Of a stretch of 64,000 nt of DNA, positions 80 to 20,150 are shown piece by piece. The notes below the pieces were generated by a model. It was not told the DNA's origin and ran no database searches. It saw only the letters and a list, made by a program, of their open reading frames with translations. Source of the DNA: Candidatus Aminicenantes bacterium (lineage in GTDB: Bacteria; Acidobacteriota; Aminicenantia; Aminicenantales; UBA4085). Each line of letters opens with the position of its first letter. Position 1 is the first letter of the stretch. A program made the position numbers and the translations under genes. Where the stretch lies: the NCBI GenBank assembly GCA_003141555.1, contig PLMN01000023.1:79916-143915 (forward strand), read 5' to 3'.

Positions 80-87
80 GTGCTCTC

Positions 88-3000
88 ATGGCGACCCTCA
101 CCCTCGAAATCAACGGCCGCAAGATCCAGGCCGACTCCGAGCGGACGATCCTCGAAGTCGTCACCGCCCACCAGCTGGATGCGATCCCGACGCTCTGCCA
201 CTCTCCCGAGCTCAAGCCTTACGGCTCGTGCTTCCTCTGCGTGGTGGAGGTGGCCGGGAAGCCGAACCTCCTGCCCGCCTGCGCGACCCGCGTGGCCGAG
301 GGGATGAAGATCACGACCCGGAACGAGCGCATCGTCGCCTCGCGGCGCACCGCCCTGGAGCTCCTCCTCTCGAACCACTACGCCGACTGCGTCTCCCCCT
401 GCGCCATGGCCTGCCCGGCGGGCGTGGACTGCCAGGGCTACGTCGCCCTGGCGGCCATGGGTGAATTCGGGCTCGCGGCGGACGTCATCCGCGAGATGAA
501 CCCCCTGCCCGCGGTCTGCGGCCGGGTCTGCGTCCGCAAGTGCGAGATCGAATGCCGCCGGTCCGACATCGACGAGCCCGTGGGGATCAACGCCATCAAG
601 CGCTTCGTGACCGACCAGCCGGGCGCCTACGACGCCGCCCCTAAGCGCCAGCCCTCGCGCGGCCAATCGGTGGGCATCGTCGGCTCGGGCCCGGCCGGCC
701 TGACGGCCGCCTGGTACCTAGGCCTGTACGGCTACGACCCGATCATCTACGAAGCCCTGCCCAAGCCGGGCGGCATGCTCCGCTATGGCATCCCCGAATA
801 CCGGCTGCCCAATGAGGTCCTCGACCGCGAAATCGGGCACATCAAGCGCGCCGGCGCCGAGATCAAGACGGGCGTGCGGATCGGCTCGGACGTCAGCCTG
901 ACCGAGCTCATGAAGACCCATGCCGCGGTGTTCATCGCCGCGGGGGCCATGGGCAGCAAGGGCATGGGCGTCGAAGGCGAGGATTCGACCGAGGGCGTCG
1001 TCAGGGGCGCCGATTTCCTCATGGAGAAAGCCGAGACGCGCACGCCCGTGAAAGGCATCGTGGTCGTCGTCGGCGGCGGGAACACGGCCATGGATGTCGC
1101 CCGCTCCTCGTGGCGCCTTGGGGCGGACCGGGTCATCATCCTCTACCGCCGGACCAAGGCCGAGATGCCGGCCGACAAGGTGGAGATCGAGGACTGCCTC
1201 AAGGAAGGCATCGAGATCATGGAGCTCGCCGCGCCCGTCGGCCTCGTGACCGAAAACGGCCTGCTCAAGGGTCTGCGCTGCATCCGGATGAAGCTCGGCG
1301 AGCCCGACAAGTCCGGCCGCCGCAGGCCCGTCCCCCAAGAGGGCTCGGAGTTCGTCCTCCCCTGCGACCTGGCCGTCTCGGCCATCGGCCAGGAGCCCGT
1401 GCTGGCCGGCCTGGCGGGCGGCCCCGACGAGCCGAAGGCCTCGCGCTGGAACACCATCGTCATCGACCAGGCCACGATGCGGACGAACGTCCCCGGCCTC
1501 TACGCCGGCGGCGACGTGGCCGACGACGGCCCGACGGTCGTGGTCGACGCCATCCGCGACGGCCACCAGGCCGCGCTCTCGATCCACGAGCAGCTCAGCG
1601 GCGAAAAGGTCGCCCGCAAACCGTTCATCGTCCAGAAGAGCCTCTGGGCCAAGCCCGGCGCGTCCGAGCTCGGCGAGGTCAAGGAAGCCCCGCGCCACGA
1701 GGTCCACGAAATCCCGATCGACGCCCGGCGGGGCAGCTACGCCGAGGTCTCGACCGGCTATGAGTTCGAGGACGTCGCCTACGAATCGGCCCGCTGCCTC
1801 TCCTGCGGCTGCGTGGTCTACGACCACTGCGCCCTGCGGCTCTACGCCCAGGAGTACGACGTCGACATCAAGCGCTACTTCGGCCGCATCCGCAAGCACA
1901 AGGTCGATGAGCGCCACCCCCACATCATCTACGACCCCAACAAGTGCATCCTCTGCGCCCGCTGCATCCGGACCTGCGCCCGCGTCCTCCCGATCTCGGC
2001 CCTCGGCCTGGTCGGCCGCGGGTTCAAGACCGAGGTCCGCCCGGCGATGAACGACCCGCTCGTCGAGACGAACTGCATCAGCTGCGGCAACTGCGTCGAC
2101 GCCTGCCCGACGGGGGCCCTGACGGTGAAGTTCCCCTTCCCCGGCCGCGCCTGCCTGCCGACCGAGGATGTGGAAACGCACTGCGCCTTCTGCTCCATCG
2201 CCTGCCCGCTCGCCGTCAAGAAGATCGACGCCGACCGCTACTACGTCGCGAAGGGCGAACGGCCGGAGAACGACCTCTGCCGCTACGGCCGCTTCGGAGC
2301 GGAGCTCTTTGCCGGCCGGCGCCGGATCGGGCAGCCGACGGCCCGCGAAAACGGCAAACCCAAGGCGGTCGCCCTCGAGGACGCTTATGCCCGGATCACG
2401 GCCGGCCTGCGGAGCGCGGCCCGGACGCACGGGGCCGAGGCGGTCGGCGTGTTCCTTTCGCCCGACCTCTCGAACGAGGAGATGTTCCTGGCGACCCGGA
2501 TCGCCCGCGAGGGCGTCGGGACCAACAACGTCGCCTCGCTCTCGCTCCTCGCCTCGGGCGCCGCGGCGGGCGCCCTGGACGCCTCGTTCGGCCTCACGGC
2601 CTCCACGGCCGACCGGACCGCCCTGAAGGCGGCGGACCTGATCGTCTGCAACAACACCGACCTCCAGAACGACCACCTGATCCTGAGCATCGGGATCCTC
2701 GCCGCCGCCGGCGAAGGGGCCAAGCTCATCCTCGCCGGCTCGGCCGGGGACGCCCTGGCGGCCCGGGCGACGCTCGCCCTCGACCCGATGCGCGGCCGCT
2801 CCGCGCTGCTCTGGAACGGGGTGATGCAGGTCCTCCTCGACCGCGGCTTCTTCAGCCGCGACGCCGTCCGCGCCCTCCCGGGCGGGGAGGAATTTCTGAG
2901 CGATCTCTTCGATTACAGCTTGAAAGCGATCTCCGAGCTGACGGGCGTCGAGGCCCCGAAGATCGTCGCCGCGGCCGACGAGCTGGCCGCCGCCAAGAAG

Positions 3001-3789
3001 GTCGTCTTCGTCCATAGCCCCGACCGGACGCAGGACCAGGCCCCCGGCAACGCCGCGGCCCTGGCGAACATGGTCATCCTTCTCCGGTCCAAGGGCATCG
3101 GGGCCGAGCTCATCCTCCCCTTTGTCGGGGCCAACGGGGCGGCCGTGGAAATCATCGGGGCCGACCCGGGCTTCCTCGCCGGCCGGATGCCGGTCAACGG
3201 CCTCCCGGGGGCTAAGAACCGGGCCGACCTTCTGGCCCTCCTCAAGGACGGCCGCCTCAAGGCGGCGCTCATCATTGGCGAGGACCCGATGGGAGACGAC
3301 AAGGTCGCCTCGTATTTCGGCAATGCCGAGTTCCTGGCGGTCGTGGACTGGACCCCCACCGAAACCGCGGCTTACGCCGACGTCGTCCTGCCCGGCTCCA
3401 CGTTCCTGGAGAGCGGCGGGACGCGCATCAACTTCGAGGGCCGCCTCACCCGCTATACGCCGGCCCTCCGCCCGCCCTTTGGGAAGACCACGGCCGAGGT
3501 CCTGGCGGGCCTGGCCCGGGCGTTCGGGATCGCCGACGCCGGCGGGACGATGGACGACATCTCGGCCGGGCTCGACCGGCTGATGCGGGCCAAGCTCGGG
3601 GACCGGGTGAAATTCTGCTGGAACACGGGTGAGGAGCGCGGCGGAATCGGCGTCGGCCGGCTGACCGTCGCCGACGTCCGGACCAAGCCGAACCCGATCG
3701 CCCCCGCGCTCACGGTCGGCGAGCGCTACAAGCGCCAGGTCCGTGATGTGGGCGTCGCCCATTATCGCGTGCAGGAAGCGAAGCCGTAA
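88..3789 (+). CDS. Multidomain Fe-S flavoprotein fused to a molybdopterin (bis-PGD) oxidoreductase-like domain; putative NAD(P)H-linked formate-dehydrogenase/NuoG-like catalytic subunit
   Basis: ATG at 88 after AAGGA RBS; the ORF track has an upstream in-frame extension to 28. Domain order is: NuoG-like 2Fe-2S (CHSPELKPYGSCFLC); GltD-like FAD/NAD(P) folds (GIVGSGPAGLTAAWY; VVVVGGGNTAMDVA); two 4Fe-4S ferredoxin motifs (CILCARCIRTC; CISCGNCVDACP); MoPGD N-terminal cluster (HCAFCSIACP); then a long MoPGD-like domain. Confidence 0.85.
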   Translation: MATLTLEINGRKIQADSERTILEVVTAHQLDAIPTLCHSPELKPYGSCFLCVVEVAGKPNLLPACATRVAEGMKITTRNERIVASRRTALELLLSNHYADCVSPCAMACPAGVDCQGYVALAAMGEFGLAADVIREMNPLPAVCGRVCVRKCEIECRRSDIDEPVGINAIKRFVTDQPGAYDAAPKRQPSRGQSVGIVGSGPAGLTAAWYLGLYGYDPIIYEALPKPGGMLRYGIPEYRLPNEVLDREIGHIKRAGAEIKTGVRIGSDVSLTELMKTHAAVFIAAGAMGSKGMGVEGEDSTEGVVRGADFLMEKAETRTPVKGIVVVVGGGNTAMDVARSSWRLGADRVIILYRRTKAEMPADKVEIEDCLKEGIEIMELAAPVGLVTENGLLKGLRCIRMKLGEPDKSGRRRPVPQEGSEFVLPCDLAVSAIGQEPVLAGLAGGPDEPKASRWNTIVIDQATMRTNVPGLYAGGDVADDGPTVVVDAIRDGHQAALSIHEQLSGEKVARKPFIVQKSLWAKPGASELGEVKEAPRHEVHEIPIDARRGSYAEVSTGYEFEDVAYESARCLSCGCVVYDHCALRLYAQEYDVDIKRYFGRIRKHKVDERHPHIIYDPNKCILCARCIRTCARVLPISALGLVGRGFKTEVRPAMNDPLVETNCISCGNCVDACPTGALTVKFPFPGRACLPTEDVETHCAFCSIACPLAVKKIDADRYYVAKGERPENDLCRYGRFGAELFAGRRRIGQPTARENGKPKAVALEDAYARITAGLRSAARTHGAEAVGVFLSPDLSNEEMFLATRIAREGVGTNNVASLSLLASGAAAGALDASFGLTASTADRTALKAADLIVCNNTDLQNDHLILSIGILAAAGEGAKLILAGSAGDALAARATLALDPMRGRSALLWNGVMQVLLDRGFFSRDAVRALPGGEEFLSDLFDYSLKAISELTGVEAPKIVAAADELAAAKKVVFVHSPDRTQDQAPGNAAALANMVILLRSKGIGAELILPFVGANGAAVEIIGADPGFLAGRMPVNGLPGAKNRADLLALLKDGRLKAALIIGEDPMGDDKVASYFGNAEFLAVVDWTPTETAAYADVVLPGSTFLESGGTRINFEGRLTRYTPALRPPFGKTTAEVLAGLARAFGIADAGGTMDDISAGLDRLMRAKLGDRVKFCWNTGEERGGIGVGRLTVADVRTKPNPIAPALTVGERYKRQVRDVGVAHYRVQEAKP

Positions 3790-3794: not shown

Positions 3795-5807
3795 ATGCCC
3801 AGCCTACCCGACGCCGTCCTCACCCTCCTCGAAAAGAGCTTTCCCTGCGTCCTCCTGACCGACGAGAAGGGCCGGATCTCGCACGCGAGCCGCGCCCTCC
3901 GAACGGAATGCGGACTGGACCCGGCGGCGGTCATGGGCCGGAACATCGTGGCCGTCGTCGCCCCCGAGTCCGCGGAGGACCTGGCGGCCTCCATGAAGAG
4001 GGCCAAGGGCGGCGTCGCGGCCAAGACGAGCGTCCTCTGCGCCGGCCCGTCACGGCGGCCGCTGGAGATAAACATCAACTACACCGAAGGGCCGGACGGC
4101 GGCCTGTTCCTTTTCTTCGGCTACTTCGGCCCGCTCGGCAACGGCCTGGCCGCGAGGGCGGAATGGGAGAAGGATGAGCGGATCAAGGAGCTCTCGTGCG
4201 TCTACGCCGTCGCCGAGTGGATCGAGGCTTCACGCTCGATCAAGGAGTTCTTCGAAGAGCTGCCCAAGTATCTCAGCCCGGGGATGCGCTACCCGGACCG
4301 GGCGATCATCTCTTCCTCCTACAGCGGAGTCGAATACGGCGATAAAGGCCGCCTCATCAGCTTCATCCGGACCGAGCTGAAGGTCGCCCACCAGCCCATG
4401 GGCGAGATCCGGGTCGGTTACGGGAGCCCGGAGTACGACCTGCTCCCCGAAGAGCAGAAGATGCTCGACGAGATCGGGCGCACCCTCAACCTGGCCCTGG
4501 AGCGCAAGTCGCTCGAGGAGAAGCTCGCCTTTAAGCAGACCGAAGTGGGCGAATCCACCGAGCGCCTGAAGGAGCTCGAGCGCCAGATCGACTCCCGGAC
4601 GCGCGAGGTCGAAGAGCAGCGCCAGAAGCTCGGCACGGTCAACGCCTATCTCGACCGGACGAAGGGCGAGTGGGAGGAGTCCAAGGCCCGGCTCGAGACG
4701 ATCTTCGCCGCCATCCCCGACACCGTGGCCCTCATCGACCGCCAGCACAGCCTGGTGATGACGAACCGCAAGAACGTCGCCGAGGGCAACACTTGCTACA
4801 AGACCTTCTTCAACCGGGATACCCCCTGCAAGGACTGCCGCATGTCGCGCGTCGCGCGGACGAAGACGCCGATCACGCTCGAGATCAGGCACGAGGACGT
4901 GTACTACGAGGTCAACGCCCAGCCCATCTTCAACAGGGAGCACGAGGTCGAAGGCATCATCGAGTTCTTCCGGGACATCACCCTGGAGAAGACCTACGAG
5001 CAGCAGCTCCAGCAGGCCGACAAGCTGGCCTCCCTGGGCCAGCTGGTGAGCGGCATCGGCCACGAGATCAACAACCCGAATCAGTTCATCCGGGGCAATG
5101 TCAAGATCATCCAGCAAGCCTTCGAGGGGATCCTGCCCATCCTCGATGAGTACTACGCCTCCCACCCCGATCTGAAGATCGCCCGCCTCAAGTACGATTT
5201 CTTCCGGGAGCACATCCTGGTGCTCATCAACGACATGGCCCACGGCTCCGAGCGGATCAAGGAGATCGTCGAGGGCCTCAAGCGCTTCGCCCGCCGCGAC
5301 GAGGGCCTCCTCATCGACGCCGTGGACGTGAACACGATCCTGGACGCCTCGCGGCGCCTGGTCCACAACGCGGTGAGCAAGAACGCGGACATCGAGCTCG
5401 ACCTCGCCCCGGACCTGCCCATCCTCACCGGCAACGCCCAGAAGATCGAGCAGGTTATCGTCAATCTCCTGATCAACGCCGGGCAGGCCATGCCCGAGGG
5501 CCGGCGCGGCCGGATCGTGGCCTCGACCCGCGTCGAAGGCGGTTCGGTCGTCATCGAGGTCCGGGACAACGGCAAGGGCATGAGCGAGCAGACGATGAAG
5601 CGCATCTACGAGCCGTTCTTCACCACCCGGCGGGCCGGAGGCGGCACCGGCCTGGGGTTGGCCATTGCCTATCGGATCATCGAGGAGCACGGCGGCTCCA
5701 TCGCGGTGACGAGCAAGCTCGACGTCGGCACGACGTTCAAGATCTCTCTCCCGATGAAGCCGGCGGGGACCGGGGCCGGCGCCAAGGCGGCCGGCGAACC
5801 CGCGTGA
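3795..5807 (+). CDS. PAS-domain sensor histidine kinase
   Basis: H-box GIGHEINNPNQF; HATPase_c G-boxes (RDNGKGM; GTGLGLAIAYRIIEEHGG). PAS-like segments with a coiled-coil linker. Start is 5 nt after the upstream stop. Confidence 0.9.
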   Translation: MPSLPDAVLTLLEKSFPCVLLTDEKGRISHASRALRTECGLDPAAVMGRNIVAVVAPESAEDLAASMKRAKGGVAAKTSVLCAGPSRRPLEININYTEGPDGGLFLFFGYFGPLGNGLAARAEWEKDERIKELSCVYAVAEWIEASRSIKEFFEELPKYLSPGMRYPDRAIISSSYSGVEYGDKGRLISFIRTELKVAHQPMGEIRVGYGSPEYDLLPEEQKMLDEIGRTLNLALERKSLEEKLAFKQTEVGESTERLKELERQIDSRTREVEEQRQKLGTVNAYLDRTKGEWEESKARLETIFAAIPDTVALIDRQHSLVMTNRKNVAEGNTCYKTFFNRDTPCKDCRMSRVARTKTPITLEIRHEDVYYEVNAQPIFNREHEVEGIIEFFRDITLEKTYEQQLQQADKLASLGQLVSGIGHEINNPNQFIRGNVKIIQQAFEGILPILDEYYASHPDLKIARLKYDFFREHILVLINDMAHGSERIKEIVEGLKRFARRDEGLLIDAVDVNTILDASRRLVHNAVSKNADIELDLAPDLPILTGNAQKIEQVIVNLLINAGQAMPEGRRGRIVASTRVEGGSVVIEVRDNGKGMSEQTMKRIYEPFFTTRRAGGGTGLGLAIAYRIIEEHGGSIAVTSKLDVGTTFKISLPMKPAGTGAGAKAAGEPA

Positions 5808-5844: not shown

Positions 5845-7215
5845 ATGAACAAGATCCTCATCGTCGACGACGACATCGCCGTCACCAACCACTTGAAGGT
5901 CTTCATGATGCAGACCGAGCGCTATGAAAGCACGGTGATCAACGACTCGCGCAAAGCCCTGGACGCGCTCCACGGGGAGCCGTTCGATGCCGTCCTGCTC
6001 GACATGGACATGCCGAACGTGAGCGGCATCGACATCCTCCAGGCCGTGCACGACCAGGCGCTCGACGTGGCCGTCGTCATCCTGACCGGCGTCGGCGACG
6101 TGGAGCTGGCCGTCCGGGCGATGAAGCTCGGAGCGTTCGACTATCTCACCAAGCCCGTGGACGAGGACACGCTCCTCAAGGTCCTCGACGACGCGATCCA
6201 ACATAAGATCATCCGGCAGTCGATCAGCCGCCTTCCGGCGAGGCTCAGCCGGGAGGACCTGACCTACGGCGAGGCGTTCGCCCAATTCCCCACCCAGGAC
6301 CCCGCCCTGATCCGCTGCTTTCACGAGGCCGAGCGGATGGCGGAGGGCGACTCCTGCATCTTCATTTGGGGCGAGCGCGGCACCTACAAGGAGATGCTCG
6401 CCCGGGCGATCCACAGCGCCAGCCCGCGGCGCAGCGGGCCGTTCGTCTCGGTCGACGTGGCGGCCCGCGAGCCGGGCCGGTTCGCCGCGGAGTTCTTCGG
6501 ACAGGGGCGGGACTGGAGCGGCGCCCGCGAGGAGGCGCCCGGCCTGGTGGAGCAGGCCGCCGGCGGGACGCTCTTCCTCGACGAGATCGACCTCCTTTCG
6601 ATCCCGGTCCAGGTCCGGCTCCTCCGCCTGATCCAGGCGGGCGATTTCTACCGCGAAAACTCAACGACGGCCGTGACGGCCGACGTCCGCATCATCGCCG
6701 CTTCGCACCACGACCTGACCCAGGAATATTACAAGAAGATGTTCTCTCGCGACCTCCTCTATCACCTGATGACGAACTCGCTGCGCATCCCCTCCCTCGC
6801 CGAGCGCCCCGGGGACATCCCCCTCCTGGCCGATTACTTCCTCAAAAGCGAAGCGAAAGCCCGGGGGAAGAAGATCGCGGGCTTCTCGCCGGAGCTCCTC
6901 GGGCTTCTCGAGCAATACGAATTCCCGGACAACGTCCGGGAGCTCAAGAACATCATCGAGCGGGCGGTGGAGGAAGAACGCGGCGAGGTTCTGACCGAGG
7001 ATTCGCTCCCGCCCCATATGAGGGACATCCTGACCCGGTCGCTCGACGACAAGGCCGAGGGGTTCCGCCCGCGCAAGCTCGCCGAAATCCAGCGCGAGCA
7101 TGTGGCTAAGATGCTCACTTATTTCAATGGAAACAGGGAAAAAGCCGCGGAGGCGCTGGGAATGGGCGAAGAGGAGATAGAAAACGTCCTCGGCGGCGCG
7201 ACGAAAGGGTCGTAA
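5845..7215 (+). CDS. NtrC-family (sigma-54 activator-like) response regulator: REC + AAA+ + Fis-type HTH, with degenerate Walker A and GAFTGA motifs
   Basis: REC domain (MNKILIVDDD ... D52-like LLDMDMP). AAA+ core with GGTLFLDEID Walker B and RELKNIIERA. C-terminal HTH (REHVAKMLTYFNGNREKAAEALGM). Walker A reads GERGTYKE instead of GESGTGKE; the GAFTGA loop reads DWSGAR. Confidence 0.85.
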   Translation: MNKILIVDDDIAVTNHLKVFMMQTERYESTVINDSRKALDALHGEPFDAVLLDMDMPNVSGIDILQAVHDQALDVAVVILTGVGDVELAVRAMKLGAFDYLTKPVDEDTLLKVLDDAIQHKIIRQSISRLPARLSREDLTYGEAFAQFPTQDPALIRCFHEAERMAEGDSCIFIWGERGTYKEMLARAIHSASPRRSGPFVSVDVAAREPGRFAAEFFGQGRDWSGAREEAPGLVEQAAGGTLFLDEIDLLSIPVQVRLLRLIQAGDFYRENSTTAVTADVRIIAASHHDLTQEYYKKMFSRDLLYHLMTNSLRIPSLAERPGDIPLLADYFLKSEAKARGKKIAGFSPELLGLLEQYEFPDNVRELKNIIERAVEEERGEVLTEDSLPPHMRDILTRSLDDKAEGFRPRKLAEIQREHVAKMLTYFNGNREKAAEALGMGEEEIENVLGGATKGS

Positions 7216-7267
7216 CGACCCTCCGCCCTCATCCTAAACCTTTTTATAACGGCTCAGTTTGTTTATC

Positions 7268-7312
7268 AATTTCCTGAAGCATAATATTTTCTCGGAGCAG
7301 CGACAGGAAATT
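7268..7312. promoter_or_regulatory. Perfect 9-bp inverted repeat AATTTCCTG-N27-CAGGAAATT in the intergenic region downstream of the response regulator and upstream of kinase 1
   Basis: Read directly from the sequence. Arms at 7268-7276 and 7304-7312. Confidence 0.3.
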
Positions 7313-7356
7313 ATGCGCTTAGGATAAGCCTGAGTTGACCCGCGGATCCACGCTTG

Positions 7357-7386
7357 TTGACACTAACTCTTTGCTTTCATTATGAT
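7357..7386 (+). promoter_or_regulatory. Sigma-70-like promoter: TTGACA-N18-TATGAT, immediately upstream of ATG 7397 (possible leaderless transcript)
   Basis: Perfect -35 hexamer at 7357-7362 and a 5/6 -10 at 7381-7386, in an AT-rich intergenic region. The predicted TSS is about 7393-7395. Confidence 0.3.
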
Positions 7387-7396
7387 TACAGGCGCC

Positions 7397-10300
7397 ATGG
7401 GGGATATCGTCGATAACATTCCGTGCCCGCATTGTCATGCCCCGAATCCGGCGAACGGCAGTTTCTGCAACAAATGCGGCAAGGCCATGGACAACAGGCC
7501 TGCCACTCTGACCTATCCTCCATCCTTCCAAACCACGCTCCGAGAAGAGCTTTCGTTTTCTCCCGGAGAAAGCTTCGGAAAGAGATACCGAATCATTGAA
7601 GAGATCGGACGGGGCGGCATGGGCCGGGTCTATAAGGCTCAAGACCTGGACCTCGGGATCACTGTGGCCCTGAAGATGATCCAGCCGAAATACTCTTCGA
7701 GCCGGACGATGATCGAACAATTCAAGAAGGAAACTCTTTTGGCCAGGTCCATCTCCCAAGAGAACGTCGTCCGGACTTATGATTTCGGGGAAATCAATCA
7801 CATCAAGTATATCTCGATGGACTACATCAAAGGGGGCAATCTCAGCGATCTGATCCAGACTTCGGGACGGCTGAGCCTGGAGACCTGTCTTCGCATCATG
7901 GTCCAGATCTGCGAAGCACTGAAGGCCGCCCATCATAAGGGGATCATTCACCGGGATCTGAAACCCCAAAACATCATGATCGATCGTTCCGGCAAGGTCT
8001 ATGTCACGGACTTCGGCCTGGCCAAGTCCCTCGCCGCCCAAGAAACGCCCGGCTTCAAAAAAGTTTATGGGACCCCGCCATATTTTTCGCCGGAGCAGGC
8101 ACGCGGGGAGGACGCCGACGAACGGTCCGATATCTATTCCCTGGGCGTCATCCTCTTCGAGATGATCACGGGACAACTGCCCTTTCAAGCCAAGACGATC
8201 GAGGGCTATATCCAAAGGCACACCTCGGAGAACGCCGTCTCCCCGTCGAAAATCAACCCTGGCATCCCTGCCCCCCTAGAAAAAATCATCATGACCTGCC
8301 TAGAAAAGAAGAAGGAAAACCGATACCAGAGCGTCGACGCGCTTCTCAAGGATCTGGATGTTCAAAAAAACGCCTACGAACAGAGCTACGCCAAGACCCG
8401 GAGGAAGCGCTTCGGGCGAGCGGCCCTGGCCGGAGGGCTGATTCTCGCGTTCATGATCGGCGTCTATTTCATAAGTCTGAAGAAACGGGCCGCCGGACCC
8501 GCCGCTTCTCAAGAGCGAAGAACCGCCGTCGCCGTTCTGTACGCGGTCAACACGTCCGAGGATCGAGAGTTGAACCAATATCGGTGGGTGATCACGGATC
8601 TCATGATCACCGGGCTGGCCCAATCGAAATATCTCAGCCTCCTGCCTATGGATCGGCTTATCCAGATCCTGACGAAGATGAAGCAGCAGGACGCCGGCCA
8701 ACACGTTTCAGAGACGCTCGATAAGATCGGATCAGCCGAGAACGTCGAATATTTTATCCTGCCTAGCCTCGTCAAAGCGGGCGGAAATCTTTGGATCAGC
8801 GCCAAAATCCGAAAAGCAGGCGACAAAGGCATCGTCGACACGACCAAGGTCCAGGGAAAGCTCGAGGACCTCCTGACCATGGTCGAAGATCTGAATACGC
8901 AGGTCAAATCGAAATTGGTTTCGTCCGCCGAAGACATCGCCGGTGATTATCACCAGGACTTGGGCAAGATCACGACTACGTCACTCGAAGCACTTGGCTA
9001 TTATGTCGAAGGAGAACGGCTCTATGCCCTTGAAGACTTTAAGGGCAGCGTCCGGGCCTTGGAAGAGGCCGTCAAATTGGACGCCAACTATGGGCTGGCG
9101 TATTGGAAATTGGCCGAGAATTACGATTATCTGGGATCTACAGATCTGGCCAATAAGAACCTCGAAAAGGCCTTAGCTTTGCTGGATCGCTTTTCCGTGC
9201 GGGATCGTTATCTTGTCCGGGGATATGCGGCCATTCATCTGGATGAACCCCCGGCCAAGGCCATCGAAAGCTATAAGAAATTGCTGGCGCTTTATCCCAA
9301 TGACGAGATGGGCCTAGCCTATCTCGGCTCGCTTTATCGGAACATGGAGGAATGGGAGGCGGCCTTAGAGCAGTTCGAGAAAATCTTGAAGATCAACCAA
9401 AGATTCCAGTTTGCCTATGTCAATCTGGCCTTTATTTACACGGCGAAGGGCTGGTATGCAAAAGCCCTTGATCTCATCCAAGCGAGCGAACGTATTTTCC
9501 CCGAAATGCAGTTCTTCCCCAAGCAAATGTCGCTGATCTACCTGGTCCAAGGCAGATTCGATGAAGCCGCCGCCTTGGTTCAAAAAGCCTTGACCCGCGC
9601 GCCCGACGACAACGCTAGCCTAGAATTTTACGGGATCATCGAACATCTTCGGGGAAATTTTGTTTCCGCCCGGAACATCTACGAACAGCTCCGAAAAAGA
9701 GAGGAAGGGACCGGCGGGCTGCGCGGTCAAATTTGGATGGGACTTCTTTATTTATTGCAGGGTGAGTTCCATCAAAGCGAGGGCGAGTTTCAGGAGGGGC
9801 TGAAGATCGCCCATCGGTTGAAGATGGAAGACGAAGAGCTGGAATTTCGTCGGCTGCAGGCGTATCTCTATCTCCAAAGGAAGCGCTTTGCCGAAGCTGC
9901 CGAAACAGTAGGAGCCTTAGTCACGATCTGTAAAAATGCCAAGAGATCCGATTTCCTGAAATCAGCCCTGCTCCTGCAGGGGATCATCGAGCTTGGGCTG
10001 GGGCGGATCGAGGAAGCCAAAAACACGTCCCGTCAGCTCCGGCAGGTGATCGAAAAAATAGGCTGTCCTAAATACATGAGATATTCTTATTATCTCCTGG
10101 GCAAGATCGCTTTGACCGAAGGCCGGCCCGCGGAGGCCCTCGATGATCTGGGAAAAGCCTTGGCCTTTCTTCCTCATCAACGGGAACAACGGGACGAGCA
10201 TGCCTTCTTCATGGAGGTTCTGGCCGAAGCCTTTGAGCAGGCCGGGGATCTCGGAAAGGCCACGGAGACGTATCAGAATATTCTGACGCTCACGACCGGG

Positions 10301-10504
10301 CGGTTGTGGTGGGGCGACATTTATGCGCGAAGCCACTACCAGTTGGGATGCCTCTATCAGAAAAAAGGATCCTCGGCGGAAGCGGTGTCCCATTTCGAGA
10401 AGTTCCTCGAGCTATGGAAAAACGCCGACCCCGGCCTGCCGGAGATTGAAGATGCGAAAAAACAGGTAGCCCTTCTCAAGAAAGGGCCGCCGCCTTGGTC
10501 TTGA
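7397..10504 (+). CDS. Zinc-ribbon / Ser-Thr protein kinase / TM / TPR-repeat protein (kinase 1)
   Basis: N-terminal CPHCHAPNPANGSFCNKCG zinc ribbon. Hanks kinase motifs (VALK; HRDLKPQNIMID; DFGLAK; GTPPYFSPE). TM helix around FGRAALAGGLILAFMIGVYF. Long C-terminal TPR array. Alternative start ATG 7382 overlaps the predicted -10. Markedly lower GC than flanking genes. Confidence 0.85.
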   Translation: MGDIVDNIPCPHCHAPNPANGSFCNKCGKAMDNRPATLTYPPSFQTTLREELSFSPGESFGKRYRIIEEIGRGGMGRVYKAQDLDLGITVALKMIQPKYSSSRTMIEQFKKETLLARSISQENVVRTYDFGEINHIKYISMDYIKGGNLSDLIQTSGRLSLETCLRIMVQICEALKAAHHKGIIHRDLKPQNIMIDRSGKVYVTDFGLAKSLAAQETPGFKKVYGTPPYFSPEQARGEDADERSDIYSLGVILFEMITGQLPFQAKTIEGYIQRHTSENAVSPSKINPGIPAPLEKIIMTCLEKKKENRYQSVDALLKDLDVQKNAYEQSYAKTRRKRFGRAALAGGLILAFMIGVYFISLKKRAAGPAASQERRTAVAVLYAVNTSEDRELNQYRWVITDLMITGLAQSKYLSLLPMDRLIQILTKMKQQDAGQHVSETLDKIGSAENVEYFILPSLVKAGGNLWISAKIRKAGDKGIVDTTKVQGKLEDLLTMVEDLNTQVKSKLVSSAEDIAGDYHQDLGKITTTSLEALGYYVEGERLYALEDFKGSVRALEEAVKLDANYGLAYWKLAENYDYLGSTDLANKNLEKALALLDRFSVRDRYLVRGYAAIHLDEPPAKAIESYKKLLALYPNDEMGLAYLGSLYRNMEEWEAALEQFEKILKINQRFQFAYVNLAFIYTAKGWYAKALDLIQASERIFPEMQFFPKQMSLIYLVQGRFDEAAALVQKALTRAPDDNASLEFYGIIEHLRGNFVSARNIYEQLRKREEGTGGLRGQIWMGLLYLLQGEFHQSEGEFQEGLKIAHRLKMEDEELEFRRLQAYLYLQRKRFAEAAETVGALVTICKNAKRSDFLKSALLLQGIIELGLGRIEEAKNTSRQLRQVIEKIGCPKYMRYSYYLLGKIALTEGRPAEALDDLGKALAFLPHQREQRDEHAFFMEVLAEAFEQAGDLGKATETYQNILTLTTGRLWWGDIYARSHYQLGCLYQKKGSSAEAVSHFEKFLELWKNADPGLPEIEDAKKQVALLKKGPPPWS

Positions 10505-11651
10505 GGAACCGCTTTCTCTTTTTGTTTTCGAACCCACTTATGAAAAGCTCTCTTTCTCTCCTCATCAGCCCCGCCATCCGGCACGTCTGAGGAGTGATCT
10601 TGCCGATCGCCCGACTGGATAAGGCGGCCACGACGGGACAGACCCGGCACGATTCGACCTCCTCGCACATGACGCAACGCCTCCCTGGCGTATAAAAATT
10701 GTCCATTGCCAAACCGGCGATGGCCGTAATGGTTCGGGCGTAGATCGCCTTAGGATCGCGGAGGAATGAATCGACCTTTCCAAAACCATATTTTCCCCTC
10801 TCGAGTTCCCCCTCTCTCCCATCGAAATAATGAGGGAAGAGGAAACATCCCCAAAGGTTTCCATCCGCCGCCAAGGCCATCCGGTCCTGACCTGCGGCGC
10901 AACTGAAGACGGCTTTCTTATGCGTTCTTTTCATATCATCCCAGGGGATATCTTCGAGCCGCTCATACGTTGCGAGGAAAAATTTTCGGACGGCTGCGAT
11001 CTCCTTTTTCATGCGGACCAGGGAGGATGGCGTCCATCGCCGTTGGGAGGAGAAGCCGATCCGGATCTTGCGAACGTCGAGGTGGATGATAAGCTCGATG
11101 GATTTCGATAAGAGCCCGACCGTCTCTGCCGTGAAGACGCTGTTCGTTTCGAGCGATATCCTCCGCCGTTTCAACATCTCGGGGATAAGCGAAATGAAGT
11201 AATCAAAGGTGCCTTTTTTTCTGGAAACGTCCTGGGCCCAACCGTCGAAGCTTAAGAGGAGGGAAAACGCGTGTTCGTCCAGGAACTGCAGAATTTCCTC
11301 GGTCAGGAGACTGCCGTTGGTGGTAATGGCGTAATGGATCTTGCGCTTTCGCGCCCGGTTCAGACGTTCGAGATAAGCGACCGTTTCGCTGATTTGATCG
11401 AAGGCCAGAAGAGGTTCCCCGCCGTAAAAATTGATATAACACTCCTCCGTCAGGCACGGCCAGAAAAAATCAAGCGCCTTCTTGATCGTCCGGATGTCCA
11501 GCCACCGATCCGCTTTTTTCTGATAACAATACGAACAACGAAAATTGCAGCGGTCGGTCAGGATGATCGTGAAGGCAGAAAACTCCCTCTTGTTTGGATC
11601 GCCGCCGCGAATTGCGTTGATTTGCTCAGAGAGGAACGCTCGCTCCTCCAT
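10476..11651 (-). CDS. Radical SAM enzyme with C-terminal SPASM domain (anSME/peptide-maturase class)
   Basis: CNFRCSYCYQ is a CxxxCxxC near the N-terminus. C-terminal Cys-rich SPASM pattern (CAAGQDRM...GCFLF...CVMCEEVESCRVCPVVA...C). GGCGGAG RBS. ATG at 11651 lies 23 nt downstream of the small ORF's stop. Confidence 0.9.
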   Translation of the reverse strand: MEERAFLSEQINAIRGGDPNKREFSAFTIILTDRCNFRCSYCYQKKADRWLDIRTIKKALDFFWPCLTEECYINFYGGEPLLAFDQISETVAYLERLNRARKRKIHYAITTNGSLLTEEILQFLDEHAFSLLLSFDGWAQDVSRKKGTFDYFISLIPEMLKRRRISLETNSVFTAETVGLLSKSIELIIHLDVRKIRIGFSSQRRWTPSSLVRMKKEIAAVRKFFLATYERLEDIPWDDMKRTHKKAVFSCAAGQDRMALAADGNLWGCFLFPHYFDGREGELERGKYGFGKVDSFLRDPKAIYARTITAIAGLAMDNFYTPGRRCVMCEEVESCRVCPVVAALSSRAIGKITPQTCRMAGLMRRERELFISGFENKKRKRFLKTKAAALS

Positions 11652-11674
11652 CTCCGCCGAAGATCAACTAAGCT

Positions 11675-11875
11675 TCAACCGCTTATGCTCGGGATTAGCC
11701 CTGTACACTGAATGCCTTCCGGGCCATAGAGGACTTGGATGATTTCATCTAGTGCCTTTCTCGCCAAATCCAGCTCTCCCGCCTGCGCCGGCTTCACTTT
11801 GACACCATCCAGGAACGCGTCAAGTCTTTTAAAACAGAGAGGCAGGTTCGGCGTTTCGACTACTTTCTTTTTCAT
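11675..11875 (-). CDS. 66-aa small peptide directly upstream of the SPASM radical-SAM gene: candidate RiPP precursor
   Basis: Sequence MKKKVVETPNLPLCFKRLDAFLDGVKVKPAQAGELDLARKALDEIIQVLYGPEGIQCTGLIPSISG. AAGGAGGGG RBS 4 nt before the ATG; own promoter-like element upstream. Low GC like the maturase. Confidence 0.5.
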   Translation of the reverse strand: MKKKVVETPNLPLCFKRLDAFLDGVKVKPAQAGELDLARKALDEIIQVLYGPEGIQCTGLIPSISG

Positions 11876-11908
11876 AACCCCTCCTTATCAAGGAAAAATA
11901 CTTTTTCT

Positions 11909-11940
11909 ATTATAGTTAAACAAAAAAAATTCTAAGTCAA
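11909..11940 (-). promoter_or_regulatory. Promoter-like element for the small peptide gene: TTGACT-N20-TATAAT (minus strand), in an AT-rich intergenic region
   Basis: Consensus -10 TATAAT (revcomp of 11909-11914) and TTGACT (revcomp of 11935-11940). The spacer is longer than optimal. Confidence 0.35.
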
Positions 11941-12007
11941 ATGGAATTTCAGCGGAAACGAAGACTGTTTTTTGGCTTTGTCAGGCGCTTCGGCGTCGCG
12001 ATGACCG

Positions 12008-13219
12008 CTATGTTTTCCACAGCGTAAGCGCTGGGTCGGGCAGAAAAACGCCCGACCGCGCCTCATCGATCATCTGGGCCACGAGCAGGTTCCAGCTGAT
12101 AAAATCGGGCGCGGCGAGCGGCGCGCCGGTGTCGCCGTGGTAATTCTCATGCATCATCCCATTCCTCTCGAGATCGGCGAGGCAGAGGCGCGTGACGCGC
12201 ACCGCGACGTCCAGCGCCTCGGGGCGATATCCGTAGCGCATCAAGGCGTGCATGAACATCCAGTTGGCGTGCGGCCAGATCGGCCCCTGCCAGTTCGAGT
12301 AGGGCTTGATCACGTTCTCGTTGTTATAAGCGGGGTCGTCGGCAGCGAGCGAACGGATCCCATACGGCGACCACAACTCGCGCGGCTGGAGGACGTGGCG
12401 CTCGATCATGGCCCGCCCCTGCTCCGGCGAGGCCAGCCCCGCCCAGAGCGGGACCATGTCGCTGTAGGTGACGTTCCGGGCCAGCACCCGCTCGACCGCA
12501 TCATAATCCGAATAGATCGGCGCCTCGTCGACCCACAGATGCGTTTGGATCGCCGCGGCCAGCCGCGCGGCGCGCTCCTTGAACGCGGCCGCTTCGGCCG
12601 CCTTCCCCAATTTCGCCGCGATCTCGGCCATCGCCCGGTAGTCGAGGACCATGAAGGCGTTGACGTCGGCCGCGGCCATGCTGTTGTGATAGCGCCGCAC
12701 CAGGACCGCGTTGTTGTCCGCGCCCGATTCCAATCCGTCCCACCACTTGACCAGCCCGGTCACCGCGTCGCTCATCTTCCGCTCGCGGTAGGTGACGCAG
12801 GCCGCCATCTTGTCCCAGACGGGCGCGATCCAGCCAAAATCGCCCAGCGCGGCGGACGCGTAGAACGCGGCTTGGCCCATGAGCGGCTTGATGTGGTAGA
12901 GGCGCGCGTCGCGGCCCGCCCAGGGCCGGATGCCGCCCGGCGTCTGGCCGTCCGGCTCGGTGTAGCGCAGGAAATTGAGGCACCAGTTGCGCAGATAGAC
13001 GCCGTCCGCCCGGTCGTGCGAAATCAGATGGAGCCCGACGAAGAACGCGTCCCAGTCCCATTGCTCCTCGTAGACGCCGCTCGGGACGATGTAATCGTAA
13101 GGCAAGGCGCCGTTGGCCTTGCGTAGCACCCGCGTCCGCAATCCGCCGATCTTTTCGCGCGCCGCGGCCGCGAGCCCGTCCAACTCGGCTTCGGAATATG
13201 ACCCTTGATGATCCGTCAT
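12008..13219 (-). CDS. (alpha/alpha)6-barrel glycoside hydrolase, GH63/GH37-like (mannosyl-/glucosylglycerate hydrolase or amylo-1,6-glucosidase-like)
   Basis: WQGPIWPHANWMFMHALMRYGY and other six-hairpin glycosidase features. ATG 13219 has a GGGAGA RBS; the ORF track extends to a TTG at 13276, abutting the methyltransferase stop. Confidence 0.75.
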   Translation of the reverse strand: MTDHQGSYSEAELDGLAAAAREKIGGLRTRVLRKANGALPYDYIVPSGVYEEQWDWDAFFVGLHLISHDRADGVYLRNWCLNFLRYTEPDGQTPGGIRPWAGRDARLYHIKPLMGQAAFYASAALGDFGWIAPVWDKMAACVTYRERKMSDAVTGLVKWWDGLESGADNNAVLVRRYHNSMAAADVNAFMVLDYRAMAEIAAKLGKAAEAAAFKERAARLAAAIQTHLWVDEAPIYSDYDAVERVLARNVTYSDMVPLWAGLASPEQGRAMIERHVLQPRELWSPYGIRSLAADDPAYNNENVIKPYSNWQGPIWPHANWMFMHALMRYGYRPEALDVAVRVTRLCLADLERNGMMHENYHGDTGAPLAAPDFISWNLLVAQMIDEARSGVFLPDPALTLWKT

Positions 13220-13277
13220 GAGGATGTCTCCCGCTTTCCTGCTCGAGCCCGTAGCGCCCAACCGGCCGCCCGGCAAG

Positions 13278-16143: not shown

Positions 16144-17736
16144 ATGAACAAGAACCTCTGGAAAATTACCGCCCTCCTTCTCATCCCGGCCCTGGCCGTC
16201 GCCTGCGGGGGGGCCTTGGTCAACGTGGCGCCGGACGAATCGGCCCGGATCGCAGCCGCAAAATCCGTGACCGTCAGGACGACGGACGGCCGCGAATTGA
16301 CCTTCGGAAGCGCGAGGATCGAAAACGAAACGATCATCGGCGTCCTGGAAAACGGCGAGAAGATGGAGATCGCTTTCTCCGCCGTCCAAGCCGTCAAGGC
16401 CAAGGATCGCGGAGTAAATCTCACGATTCCCGTCTTGATCCTCGATTTCGCGGTCGCCGCCTGGCTGGGAATCGGCGCCGCGACCGCTCCCTCGCCGCCG
16501 CCGACCAATTCCTGCCCGCTGATCTATTCCTTCGACGGGCAGGCGTTCGTCCTCGAGGCCGAGCCCTACGGCGGGGCGGTCGTCAAGGGCCTGCAGCGGA
16601 CCGAATGGATCGGCCTCGACCGCCTGGCCGAGATCGGAGGCACCTTCAAGCTCCGCGCGGCCAACGATCTCAGCGAGTCCGAATACCTCGACGAGCTGAA
16701 GCTCGTGGTCGTGGACCACGCGCCCGGGGCGCGCGCCCTTCCCGACCCGAACGGACGCATCCACATCATCTCCGATCCTATCCCACCGTCGAGCGCCGTC
16801 ACGAAGGGCGGCCTCGATGTCCGCGCGGCTCTATCACAAAATGACCGCTCGTTCTGGGAGCCGGCTTATCCGGCGCCTTCCGCCGTCTCCTCCGCGCCCT
16901 CCCACCCCGCCGGCCCCGCCCCCTCGCCCGAGGAAATCGCCGAAGCCACGCCCATCGACTCGCTCCGCGACGAGCTGATCCTCGAATTCCCAAAGCCGGC
17001 CGGCGCCCGGACGGCCGCCCTCGTGGCCAACGCCTGGACGACATTCTGGGGATCGGACATCGCCAAAAGCATCATCTCGCTCCACGGCCGCGATCTGCCC
17101 CAATGGACGGCCGCGGTCAACGCCCACGGCCCCGAATATCGCGAGATCATGAGCTGGTTCCTGACCGAGGAGCTCTACATGCTCAAGGTCGAGGTCGAGA
17201 CCACGGCGGGCTGGAAGCCCAGGACCATGATTTTCGGCGGCGGACCCATCGTCGCCCGCGACAAGGCCTATCTGATGGACATCTCCGACGCGGCGGGCGG
17301 CACGCTGAAGCTCCGCCTCCGGCCGCCCGCCGGATTCTGGCGGTTCAATTCGTTCGCCATCGATTACGGCGATGCCGCGCCCCTGCGCGTCACGGAAATC
17401 GCCCCCGCCCGGGCCCGCGACGCCGCCGGGCGCGACGTCCGCCAGAACCTCGCGGCGAACGATGGGGACTATTTCGTCATGCCCCATACCGGGGACTACG
17501 CCGAGCTGCTGTTCGCGGCGCCCCCCGCTCCTACGCGGTCCGCGCGGAGCGTCATCCTCAAAGCGTCGGGCTACTACGATCCGCGTCTCTCCGCCGACGG
17601 CGAGCCGCGCCTTGATCTGCTCCGCCGGATCCACTCCGAGGCGGGCGCGACGCTGCGCTTCGCCTACGCGGAACATCTGAGGCGACTCGCGGCGGCCGCC
17701 GCGGCGCCCCCCGCACACGCACCCGCACTCCGATGA
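16144..17736 (+). CDS. Lipoprotein, hypothetical (530 aa); its stop overlaps the start of the downstream radical-SAM gene
   Basis: AAGGAGAA RBS. Lipobox LAVAC. ATGATGA overlap with the next gene at 17733. Confidence 0.7.
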   Translation: MNKNLWKITALLLIPALAVACGGALVNVAPDESARIAAAKSVTVRTTDGRELTFGSARIENETIIGVLENGEKMEIAFSAVQAVKAKDRGVNLTIPVLILDFAVAAWLGIGAATAPSPPPTNSCPLIYSFDGQAFVLEAEPYGGAVVKGLQRTEWIGLDRLAEIGGTFKLRAANDLSESEYLDELKLVVVDHAPGARALPDPNGRIHIISDPIPPSSAVTKGGLDVRAALSQNDRSFWEPAYPAPSAVSSAPSHPAGPAPSPEEIAEATPIDSLRDELILEFPKPAGARTAALVANAWTTFWGSDIAKSIISLHGRDLPQWTAAVNAHGPEYREIMSWFLTEELYMLKVEVETTAGWKPRTMIFGGGPIVARDKAYLMDISDAAGGTLKLRLRPPAGFWRFNSFAIDYGDAAPLRVTEIAPARARDAAGRDVRQNLAANDGDYFVMPHTGDYAELLFAAPPAPTRSARSVILKASGYYDPRLSADGEPRLDLLRRIHSEAGATLRFAYAEHLRRLAAAAAAPPAHAPALR

Positions 17737-18959
17737 TGACCAGCGACAGGTTTCCGCGGAGCCTGGGAATCAAGCCCCTGAAGTTCCCCCGCTTTGACAC
17801 ACCGCACGCCACGATCGAGACGAACCGCACCTGCGACATCCGCTGCTCCGCCTGTTACAACCTGAACCGGACCCACGTCAAGACGATCGCCGAAATCCGG
17901 GCCGAGATCGATCTGGCCCTGTCCCTGCGCAACCTGGCGATGATCACCCTCCTCGGCGGGGAGCCGACGCTCCATCCCGGGCTGGCGGAGATCGCGGCTT
18001 ACGTAAAAAGCAAGGGCCTGACCTGCCAGATCCTGACGAACGGGCTGACCATTCTCAAAGACGAAAGCGGCCGCTACCTCGCCGGGCTGGCCGCCGCGGG
18101 CGTGGACCGGATCGTCCTCCACGTGGATTCGGGCCAGAGCCACGTCCACGGCGACATCGAGGCAGCGCGGTGCGCCCTGTTCGCCAAGCTCGAGGCGGCC
18201 AAGATCCGCTTTTCCCTGTCGCTCACGATCTACGACGGCCGGCAGGGAGAGATTCCGGACCTTGTCCGCCGCTACGCGTCCTACCGGTATTTCGACGGCA
18301 TTCTGGCGATCCTGGCCCGCGACGCCCCTCCCGTCAAGATCCAACATCCCGAGCTCGCCCTCGAATACGACGCCCTCGCGCGATCGCTCGCCGTTCAGCC
18401 CGTGGCTTACGTGCCGTCGAGCCTGAGCGATACCGACGTCCACTGGCTCGTCTATTTCTATTTCATGGACGCCGGGACCGGCGAAGCGTTCGCCCTTTCC
18501 CCCCTCGCCTATCGGATCTTTCTGCGGGCCCACAAGCTCCTTCGCGGCCGGAATCTGCTCAATGCGGCCATCCCGCCGCGCCTGACGCCGCTCCTCGCCG
18601 CGGCCGCGGGCGCGGGCGAGGTCCTGCTCCATCCCGGGCGCCTGTCCGCCTTCGCCGCGTTCCTGGCGCGCCCGGCCCGCTCGCAGGCGCAGGAAGCTCC
18701 TCGTCCGCGCCGCCCGCGGCGATCACGGCTCCGCTTCCACTACATCGCCATCCAGACGCCGCCCGAGTTCAACGAGCGGCGGGGAATCCATCAGTTTTGC
18801 TACAGCTGTCCGGATGCGACGATCCGGAACGGGAAATTGACGCCCGTCTGCGTGGCGGACCGGGTGAGCCCGCTCCCGGGCGAAGCACGGGCCGTAGACG
18901 CCGCGTTGGCGCGCGCCGTCTACGGTCCCATGCGGGAGCCGGCCGGGCTTACAGCTTGA
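17733..18959 (+). CDS. Radical SAM enzyme with a C-terminal cysteine-containing auxiliary region
   Basis: CDIRCSACY CxxxCxxC motif. C-terminal CYSCPD...PVC. Translationally coupled to the upstream lipoprotein gene. Confidence 0.8.
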
Positions 18960-20112
18960 ACCAGCTCTTCAGGACGTCGGCCTTGTCGGTCCGCTCCCAG
19001 GTGAACTCGGGGAGCTCGCGGCCGAAGTGGCCGTAGGCGGCCGTCTTCTGGTAAATCGGCCGGCGCAGGTCGAGCATGTCGATCATGCCCTTGGGCGTGA
19101 CCTTGAAGATCTCGCGCACGGCGTTCTCGGCCTGGTGCTCCTCCACCTTGCGGCCGCCGTGGAGGCTGATCATCAGGGACGTGGGATCGACGACGCCGAT
19201 GGCGTAGGACAGCTGCACGGTGCAGCGCTCGGCCAGGCCGGCGGCGACGATGTTCTTGGCGATGTAGCGGGCCATGTAGGCCGCGGAGCGATCGACCTTC
19301 GTGGGGTCTTTCCCGGAGAAGGCGCCGCCGCCGTGGGGGCAGCTGCCGCCGTAGGTGTCGACGATGATCTTCCGGCCGGTCAGTCCGGTGTCGCCGGCCG
19401 GGCCGCCGATGTAGAAGTTGCCCGAGGGGTTGATGAGGTAAACGATGTCCTGGGGCAGAAGGTTCGCCGGAATGATCGGGTCGATGATGTGGGCCCGGAC
19501 CGCGGCCTCGATGTCCTTGTGGGAGACGCCCTTCGTGTGCTGGGTGGAGAGCACGACGCGCTCCACGGCCACCGGGCGGTGGCCGACGTAGCGGATGGAG
19601 ACCTGGGACTTGGCGTCGGGCAGGAGCCAGGGGATGAGGCCGGCCTTCCGGACCTCGGACTGCTTCTGGAGCAGCTTGTGAGCGAGCATGATCGGGAGGG
19701 GCATGAGCTCGGGCGTTTCGGTGCAGGCGTAGCCGAACATCAGGCCCTGGTCGCCGGCGCCGATCTCGCCGTCCTTCTTCTCGACGGCTTCGTTGATGTT
19801 GGCCGATTGGCCGTGCATCAGGTTCTCGACGTCGCAGGTCTTGTAGTCGAAGCCGCAGCCCGCGTCGCAGTAGCCGATGTTCTTGGCCGTCTCGCGGACG
19901 ATCGCCTCGACATCGAATTTGACGCCCTGCTTCGCCTGGAATTCCCCAGCTACGACGGCCTTATTTTCCGTCAGCAGGGTCTCGCAGGCCACGTGGCCGT
20001 GGGGATCCTGCTTGAAGATCGCGTCCAGCACCGCGTCCGAGACCTGGTCGGCCATCTTGTCGGGATGGCCTTCGGACACGGATTCCGAAGTAAAAAGATA
20101 ATCTCTTTCCAT
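18949..20112 (-). CDS. metK: S-adenosylmethionine synthetase
   Basis: [35 protein letters not shown] and other hallmark MetK motifs. ATG at 20112 has an AAAGGAGG RBS. The ORF track's upstream extension to 20148 lacks an RBS. Confidence 0.95.
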
Positions 20113-20150
20113 CTCACGAACCTCCTTTCGTTCAGGATGAAAATCCAATA

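Follow-up and report, generated by a model that had tools for sequence, protein, structure and literature searches.

The window analyzed here, that is, the whole stretch of 64,000 nucleotides (nt) taken from contig PLMN01000023.1 of a Candidatus Aminicenantes bacterium (assembly GCA_003141555.1, forward-strand positions 79,916 to 143,915), contains a low-GC island at 7216–12007 (unstranded). The island has sharp edges at about 7216 and 12007, and holds exactly three genes together with their flanking intergenic DNA. The minus strand carries two of the genes: a small open reading frame (ORF) at 11675–11875 (−), encoding a peptide of 66 amino acids (aa; MKKKVV...QCTGLIPSISG), and, after a gap of 23 nt, the gene of a 391-aa radical-SAM (rSAM)/SPASM enzyme at 10476–11651 (−). 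The third, at 7382–10504 (+), is convergent with them and encodes a 1040-aa Hanks-type Ser/Thr kinase with the Pfam domains Pkinase, TPR and DZR. The original prediction, made from the sequence alone, had described the small ORF 23 nt ahead of the rSAM gene as a candidate locus for a peptide made on the ribosome and modified after translation (RiPP), and this layout is borne out. We find that the small ORF is a real and conserved gene. We also propose, with moderate confidence, that the three genes form a module of Aminicenantes-type bacteria, consisting of a precursor, an rSAM maturase that lacks a RiPP recognition element (RRE) and would modify Cys57 of the precursor, and a membrane sensor with TPR repeats that would act together with them.

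The peptide gene and its conservation

A word search with the single 66-aa peptide sequence returned only the peptide itself, and its homologs surfaced through gene neighbourhoods and profiles. Relatives of the rSAM number in the hundreds, and those with a source name are labelled Candidatus Aminicenantes. For example, three relatives (80%, 72%, and 59% identity) each have an ORF of 67–80 aa directly upstream that can be aligned with the window peptide. Scanning genome contigs with the full rSAM alignment yielded distant rSAMs only, drawn in by generic GGEPLL-type patterns; a scan of metagenomes that started from the C-terminal half of the rSAM, which is family-specific (IxLETNSVF, GxLWGCxxF), yielded 80 loci at 38–82% identity. 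A hidden Markov model (HMM) iterated from four peptides detected a homolog directly upstream of the rSAM gene, on the same strand, in 61 loci. All 61 of these genes start with ATG; an exact GGAGG is located within 18 nt of it in 59, and in the remaining two, four of the five positions match. Thirteen further loci with more divergent peptides were found by inspection. Given these same-position homologs, the ATG starts, and the strong ribosome-binding sites, a chance ORF was rejected. Among the loci with at least 350 nt of upstream DNA, whose rSAMs are 38–83% identical to that of the window, the peptide is present in 74 of 78 (including L166, in which the peptide gene lies downstream of the rSAM gene). 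The co-conservation in relatives that had been put forward as a check on the prediction is therefore found, with a core that is conserved at one Cys only. In addition, searching 1.84 billion representatives exhaustively with a profile identified 86 members of the peptide family, nearly all of 57–112 aa, none of them named and none with a Pfam domain. A profile search in a set of 5.8 billion proteins gave only 11 significant matches, E-values being harsh for short peptides.

The peptide gene has a Shine-Dalgarno sequence, AAGGAGGGG, at 11878–11886 (−), 2 nt before its ATG. Upstream of the gene is an AT-rich intergenic region of 132 nt with a putative promoter-like element at 11909–11940 (−), which consists of TTGACT (11935–11940), a T-rich spacer of 17 nt, and AACTAT/TATAAT (11909–11917, with TATAAT at 11909–11914). 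In 12 of 13 clade-A loci, where the genes further upstream are unrelated, TTGAC(T/A)-N17-RATGAT lies at a constant distance from the ATG, and the TATAAT of the window overlaps the last three bases of the conserved second hexamer and extends 3 nt downstream of it. A ribosome-binding site and a TATAAT-containing promoter had both been predicted. The site and the TATAAT sequence are present; however, a sigma-70 consensus scan called no site on the minus strand here, and the conserved element is TTGACT-N17-RATGAT, offset from the TATAAT. These observations support a peptide–rSAM operon with a promoter of its own, which we presume to be functional.

Base composition sets the three genes apart from their surroundings. 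GC content is 0.507 in the peptide gene, 0.534 in the rSAM gene, and 0.537 in the kinase gene, and 0.39–0.45 in the intergenic DNA of the island; outside the island it is 0.662 in a glycoside hydrolase (GH) gene, 0.647 in a methyltransferase gene, 0.65–0.66 in neighbouring genes, and 0.636 over the window. The low GC of the peptide and rSAM genes relative to the GH and methyltransferase genes had been noted in the original prediction and is real, although the island also holds the kinase gene, which that prediction did not mention. In 23 of 24 loci, the GC of the module is below that of one or both flanks, and both flanks exceed it in 17 of 24. In the flanks of 85 loci, no other gene family is conserved, the most frequent one (7/85) representing local synteny. 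Among these flanking families, a GH ORF is near the module in four loci only and the methyltransferase is in no listed cluster. Neither recurs across loci, and both were rejected as members of the module, as had been anticipated. The GH count tracks a region rather than a gene, as the recurring ORF (12008–13276 (−)) overlaps an MGH1-like/trehalase-type GH gene in an opposite-strand frame. Its cluster is found near the module in four loci, including L086, L087, and L130, and its high, host-like GC points to lineage synteny and not to module membership.

Peptide anatomy and the radical-SAM/SPASM enzyme

The peptide can be divided into a leader (residues 1–50, nt 11726–11875) and a core (residues 51–66, nt 11678–11725, with Cys57 at nt 11705–11707), all on the minus strand. 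Across 31 aligned peptides, Y50 and C57 are the sole invariant residues. The leader has the motif LPNFPLLFxxIxxFL, followed by a second helix, A..A...I....Y, that ends in Tyr. The AlphaFold2 (AF2) model of the peptide is a helical hairpin (H11–24/H29–50, pLDDT about 88) with residues 51–66 disordered. In closely related pairs, divergence is faster in the core than in either the leader or the rSAM; for L083 and L085, for example, identities are 0.76 for the rSAM, 0.75 for the leader, and 0.28 for the core. A core Cys is present in 129 of 129 unique peptides, 87 of which have exactly one. Around this Cys, positions −1 and +5 are most often Pro and position +2 is most often Gly, which gives a loose (Y)P-C-x-G-x-x-P in the 129 peptides. 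The spacing C-x3-4-P is found in 36 of 63 peptides compared to 14.8 ± 3.2 in tail shuffles, in counts that are not corrected for phylogeny. In the window, the core is GPEGIQC-TGLIP-SISG, with one core Cys. Two Cys and a YG motif had been singled out in the original prediction; both Cys (C14 and C57) are present, but only C57 is conserved, and C14 and YG are shared within the nearest clade only.

Some precursors carry several cores. In L097, L100, L132, and P0187, there are two to three repeats of AKxYPCxxxxRISxMP or LMGCxxWPKQK, and the peptide of L131 (101–515 (+)) has four ICPxxDPxRF units, with the CX3D/N spacing of PapA, which is found in L131 only. The combination of a conserved leader with a hypervariable core around an invariant Cys is the pattern expected of a RiPP precursor, and supports that assignment. 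Separately, a database protein of 283 aa (P0160) consists of five tandem repeats of ~59 aa, each similar to the second helix of the leader plus a 'YFRPPPRQCEEEVP' core; it may be either a concatenation of several precursors or an artefact of assembly.

The enzyme has its CX3CX2C motif at nt 11526–11549 and seven SPASM Cys within nt 10581–10901. C35, C39, and C42, as well as C251, C269, C326, C329, C335, C338, and C357, are invariant in 17 homologs. The spacing of the last seven (C251-X12-G-X4-C269, C326-X2-C329-X5-C335-X2-C338, C357) fits the 7-Cys motif CX9-15GX4C...CX2CX5CX2-3C...C. Pfam identifies Radical_SAM (PF04055, 59 bits against a cut-off of 29.5) and Fer4_12. The Pfam SPASM model does not match the rSAM, and the SPASM assignment, which agrees with the one made originally, therefore rests on the Cys motif and the fold. 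The AF2 model (pLDDT 82.5) matches rSAM folds with a partial TIM barrel, and Foldseek places it with CteB (E 3.7e-16, TM 0.71), TigE, anSMEcpe (TM 0.69/0.73), ChlB, SkfB, and SuiB, with full-length fold alignments to CteB and to the anaerobic sulfatase-maturating enzyme (anSME). A profile search against the PDB likewise gave CteB (7.6e-25), TigE (1.5e-24), and anSME (9e-16). The best NCBIfam model is the PapB ranthipeptide maturase (NF047865, 149.4 bits against a cut-off of 340, 1.4e-43), followed by other peptide maturases, and the rSAM stays below the curated cut-off of every NCBIfam rSAM model, including those of PapB, the SCIFF maturase (TIGR03974, 76.8 bits against 425), and anSME (TIGR03942, 47.1 bits against 349); the DynA match is 44 bits against 450. 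By sequence and fold, then, the nearest enzymes are the thioether-forming maturases PapB and CteB, and the rSAM does not cluster with anSME, a comparison that had been proposed as a way of checking the prediction.

The rSAM has no RRE domain, as seen from the late starts of its alignments and from the sole short helix in front of its first strand. Its core begins at about residue 22, alignments to the CcpM, nif11, QhpD, HxsB, and SCIFF maturases start at profile positions 75–96, and AF2 places one short helix of low confidence before beta-1. Together with the peptide patterns, this supports a new rSAM RiPP-type family, in which a leader-guided and RRE-independent SPASM enzyme would act on a single invariant Cys. 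The earlier suggestion of an undescribed RiPP class thus gains support, RiPP status being read here from genomic evidence.

How the two gene products would work together can be proposed as follows. The 66-aa product would be a RiPP-type precursor, with a helical-hairpin leader of 50 residues and a short, disordered, fast-evolving core, and the rSAM, encoded 23 nt downstream, would be translated from the same transcript. The enzyme would bind the leader directly and modify the one invariant Cys of the core by means of a 5'-deoxyadenosyl radical. The most likely reaction would be the formation of an intramolecular thioether between the Cys sulfur and a carbon of a residue three to five positions downstream, which would give a small ring within (Y)P-C-x-G-x-x-P. 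To judge from the nearest enzymes, the carbon attacked may be alpha, beta, or gamma.

The membrane partner and competing explanations

The most constant neighbour of the pair is the convergent kinase. It has a Zn-ribbon N-terminal of the kinase domain (~nt 7586–8341), a transmembrane (TM) segment (~nt 8417–8482), and a TolB-N-like and TPR region (~nt 8483–10501), all on the plus strand. The kinase domain (PF00069, 187.6 bits) has the HRDLKPQN and DFG motifs. It is followed by a single hydrophobic segment at about residues 346–367, and then by the TolB-N-like region and the TPR repeats. With a cytoplasmic kinase domain, the C-terminal part of 670 residues is predicted to be extracytoplasmic. 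Conservation extends over the whole length of 42 kinase orthologs, and of the 69 loci that extend at least 600 nt downstream, 60 have a full-length, convergent ortholog adjoining the rSAM gene. In the window, the 3' ends of the rSAM and kinase genes overlap tail-to-tail by 29 nt (10476–10504), and convergent transcription could couple their expression. Close relatives have a similar overlap, and distant relatives a gap of about 30 nt.

One clade (L148, L150, L156, L157, and L160) lacks the kinase. In 5 of 5 informative loci of this clade, the gene directly upstream, ending at the start of the peptide gene, encodes a protein with a helix-turn-helix (HTH)-like N-terminus, one TM segment, an 'LSVLPFKNL' TolB-N-like region, and TPRs (556–2469 (+) in L157). 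As this protein is collinear with kinase residues 338–771, the constant partner is the TM and TolB-N/TPR sensor, and the cytoplasmic output is what varies. In L157 there is, in addition, another SPASM rSAM, at 6489–7823 (−). Elsewhere in the window, at 37275–40394 (+), there is a paralog of the kinase (1039 aa, 29% identity) with the same Zn-ribbon/kinase/TM/TolB-N-like/TPR layout. It has no adjoining rSAM or peptide gene, and a GH106 rhamnosidase follows it. The architecture is therefore that of a family, of which the rSAM-linked kinases are one subfamily.

That the pair is linked near-obligately to a TPR membrane sensor, and that the output of this sensor can be either a Ser/Thr kinase or an HTH domain, suggests a peptide–receptor pairing. 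In the mechanism that we propose, the modified product would act with the co-inherited single-pass membrane protein, whose TolB-N-like/TPR region would be extracytoplasmic and whose cytoplasmic output would be a Ser/Thr kinase or, in one clade, an HTH domain. The membrane protein would either sense the exported peptide, as the receptor of a signal, or control its production. In its boldest form, the proposal is that an rSAM-cyclised, single-Cys RiPP is the cognate ligand of the TolB-N-like/TPR receptor and that the three genes are a mobile Aminicenantes cassette for a previously unrecognised kind of peptide signalling; we regard this full version as doubtful.

Several observations weigh against the proposed module or its signalling role. 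High conservation of the TPR region of the kinase (mean column conservation 0.61), next to hypervariable cores, is a poor fit with core-specific recognition. No protease, transporter, RRE protein, or PqqD-like gene is conserved in the module or in the flanks of 85 loci, such that maturation and export, if they occur, would rely on unlinked genes. Both points call for caution toward a simple pheromone model. The leader, moreover, is unlike a secretion signal. Position +4 from the Cys is highly variable, and thus no acceptor residue can be named. L167 has the peptide and rSAM genes without the kinase, and the peptide is absent from L152, L154, and L158, where the kinase is absent too, as well as from L159, where the downstream DNA is too short for the kinase. 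Finally, the loci are related metagenome fragments and not independent samples.

Of the other explanations, the one that survives best concerns the kinase link alone and is a possible, if unlikely, reading: the link would be regulatory or merely syntenic, with the sensor or HTH protein answering an unrelated external cue and switching on the peptide operon, and the peptide would be an antimicrobial or stress effector and not a ligand. In its favour, the partner in the kinase-less clade is an HTH DNA-binding protein encoded directly upstream, and local regulators beside RiPP operons are common. The conserved TPR region next to variable cores and the paralogous kinase without an rSAM are in line with it as well. 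On the other hand, this explanation is compatible with the biosynthetic part of the proposed module, and ligand sensing and regulation are inseparable by sequence alone.

Chemistry of the anSME type is improbable. Here, a C-beta hydrogen of the invariant Cys would be abstracted to leave formylglycine, an aldehyde, in the peptide, possibly reacting further. The enzyme has the size and the RRE-less architecture of anSME, its fold match to anSMEcpe is good, pipelines of the Joint Genome Institute (JGI) annotate its homologs as 'AslB', and its target would be a single invariant Cys. In addition, C-x-[GPA]-x-[RK], loosely like the C-x-P-x-R of sulfatases, is found in 20 of 129 cores. A true C-x-P-x-R, however, is found in 1 of 129. 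The score against the anSME model falls far short of its cut-off, PapB and CteB are better by sequence, and CteB is better by Foldseek E-value. The ligation of the first auxiliary cluster (Aux I) is also relevant. In anSME, Aux I is fully ligated, by way of an eighth Cys located upstream, and in the CteB-like arrangement, one Aux I iron is open for the substrate Cys. No eighth Cys upstream of C251 is conserved in the 17 homologs, which would weakly favour a thioether over oxidation of Cys to formylglycine.

It is a little less probable still that the small protein is not a substrate at all. It could instead be a helical accessory protein or regulator, such as an adaptor or inhibitor of the kinase, with the rSAM modifying the kinase or an unlinked protein. 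The stable-looking helical hairpin of the leader, the constancy of the kinase as a neighbour, and the lack of an RRE, protease, and exporter in the module would all suit such a protein. A hypervariable tail with an invariant Cys, repeated cores, and a conserved leader are nevertheless the signature of a precursor and not of an adaptor, and the peptide–rSAM pair is kept where the kinase is absent (L167 and the L157 clade). An ordinary anaerobic sulfatase maturase, with its sulfatase elsewhere and the small ORF incidental, is suggested by the AslB labels and the SPASM fold but was rejected as highly improbable, given that the anSME model is missed by 300 bits, that no sulfatase was found in the 64-kb window (as predicted; neither by Pfam among the ORFs scanned nor by a crude signature regex in ORFs of at least 250 aa), that no sulfatase-like family recurs in the flanks of 85 loci, and that the small ORF with its strong ribosome-binding sites is present in 74 of 78 loci.

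The remainder of the window offers some further observations. Rfam gave no match at E ≤ 1 in the island, and a riboswitch or other RNA was rejected there. A phage-defence system was also rejected, PADLOC matches being generic only (viperin-core and kinase-domain). The region at 16144–18959 (+) includes a second radical-SAM gene at 17733–18959 (best NCBIfam model TrsS, 53 bits, far below its cut-off), which is unrelated to the module rSAM and was rejected as its paralog. Its start overlaps an ORF of 530 aa without a Pfam or NCBIfam match, and metK (SAM synthetase; 18949–20148 (−)) is convergent with it. A protein of 1000 aa with TPR and CHAT (caspase-like) domains is encoded at 22836–25838 (+). 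At 28–3789 (+), there is a gene for a 1253-aa protein in which 2Fe-2S, pyridine-nucleotide-disulphide oxidoreductase, 4Fe-4S, and molybdopterin-oxidoreductase domains are fused, and downstream of it are a PAS histidine kinase (3795–5807) and a sigma-54 response regulator (5845–7215), the latter abutting the low-GC island.

Relation to known radical-SAM systems

Our literature search found nothing relevant on rSAM RiPPs of Aminicenantes, or on an rSAM RiPP with a kinase or TPR partner. rSAM RiPPs are one of the main sources of new peptide chemistry, and genome mining for them relies mostly on RRE domains, Cys-rich cores, and nearby transporters. The module has none of these and therefore escapes such filters; RRE-based atlases (PMC10288494), for example, would miss it by design. 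What it offers is a compact two-gene system from an uncultured phylum, with a 66-aa precursor, a 391-aa RRE-less maturase, and a high natural diversity of cores around one reactive Cys. If the peptide–receptor pairing were true, RiPP biosynthesis and Hanks-kinase signalling would be connected, and the class of ligand for a recurrent kinase architecture would be identified.

The nearest system by NCBIfam score is PapB with its substrate PapA (freyrasin), and common to both is a radical-SAM/SPASM enzyme acting, or proposed to act, on Cys of a leader-bearing precursor. To our knowledge, PapAB has no counterpart of the kinase partner. PapA has CX3D motifs, to which the C-x3-D/N repeats of L131 are alike (PMC9413430), whereas the window peptide is without CX3D/E and has a single Cys in its core. 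The PapA leader is expected to bind an RRE (PMC9413430), which the module rSAM does not have. The SCIFF maturase CteB (PDB 5WGG/5WHY; TIGR03974) is the top match by PDB profile and by fold, and both enzymes have a seven-Cys SPASM. CteB, however, extends further at the N-terminus, by about 95 residues that the module rSAM lacks (alignment from profile position 96), and SCIFF precursors have six Cys (six-Cys-in-45), whereas peptides of the window family mostly have one or two core Cys. In length and RRE-less architecture, the module rSAM matches anSMEcpe (PDB 4K37; TIGR03942), and anSME, too, acts on a single Cys or Ser. The module differs from anSME in its dedicated small precursor gene and in the lack of an eighth SPASM-region Cys.

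ChlB (PDB 9GM3) and DarE/DynA (darobactin, dynobactin) are also small, RRE-independent SPASM enzymes on leader-bearing precursors, and ChlB is among the fold matches of the module rSAM and DynA among its NCBIfam matches; sequence similarity is weak. These enzymes join aromatic or aliphatic residues by C-C or ether crosslinks, which are not Cys-centred, and their operons carry transporters. On the signalling side, the RaS-RiPPs controlled by Rgg/SHP and the RRNPP TPR receptors likewise link a short peptide gene to a TPR signalling protein, and rSAM-modified peptides have been tied to quorum sensing in streptococci (PMC13361665). Unlike the cytoplasmic RRNPP regulators, the module has a TPR region for which an extracytoplasmic location is predicted, carried by a single-pass Hanks kinase or HTH protein. 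There is no sequence relationship between the two, and the link to signalling in the module is one that we infer. Overall, the module would appear to be a variant of the rSAM-SPASM RiPPs, set apart by its RRE-less enzyme, its single-Cys cores, and its fixed sensor-kinase partner.

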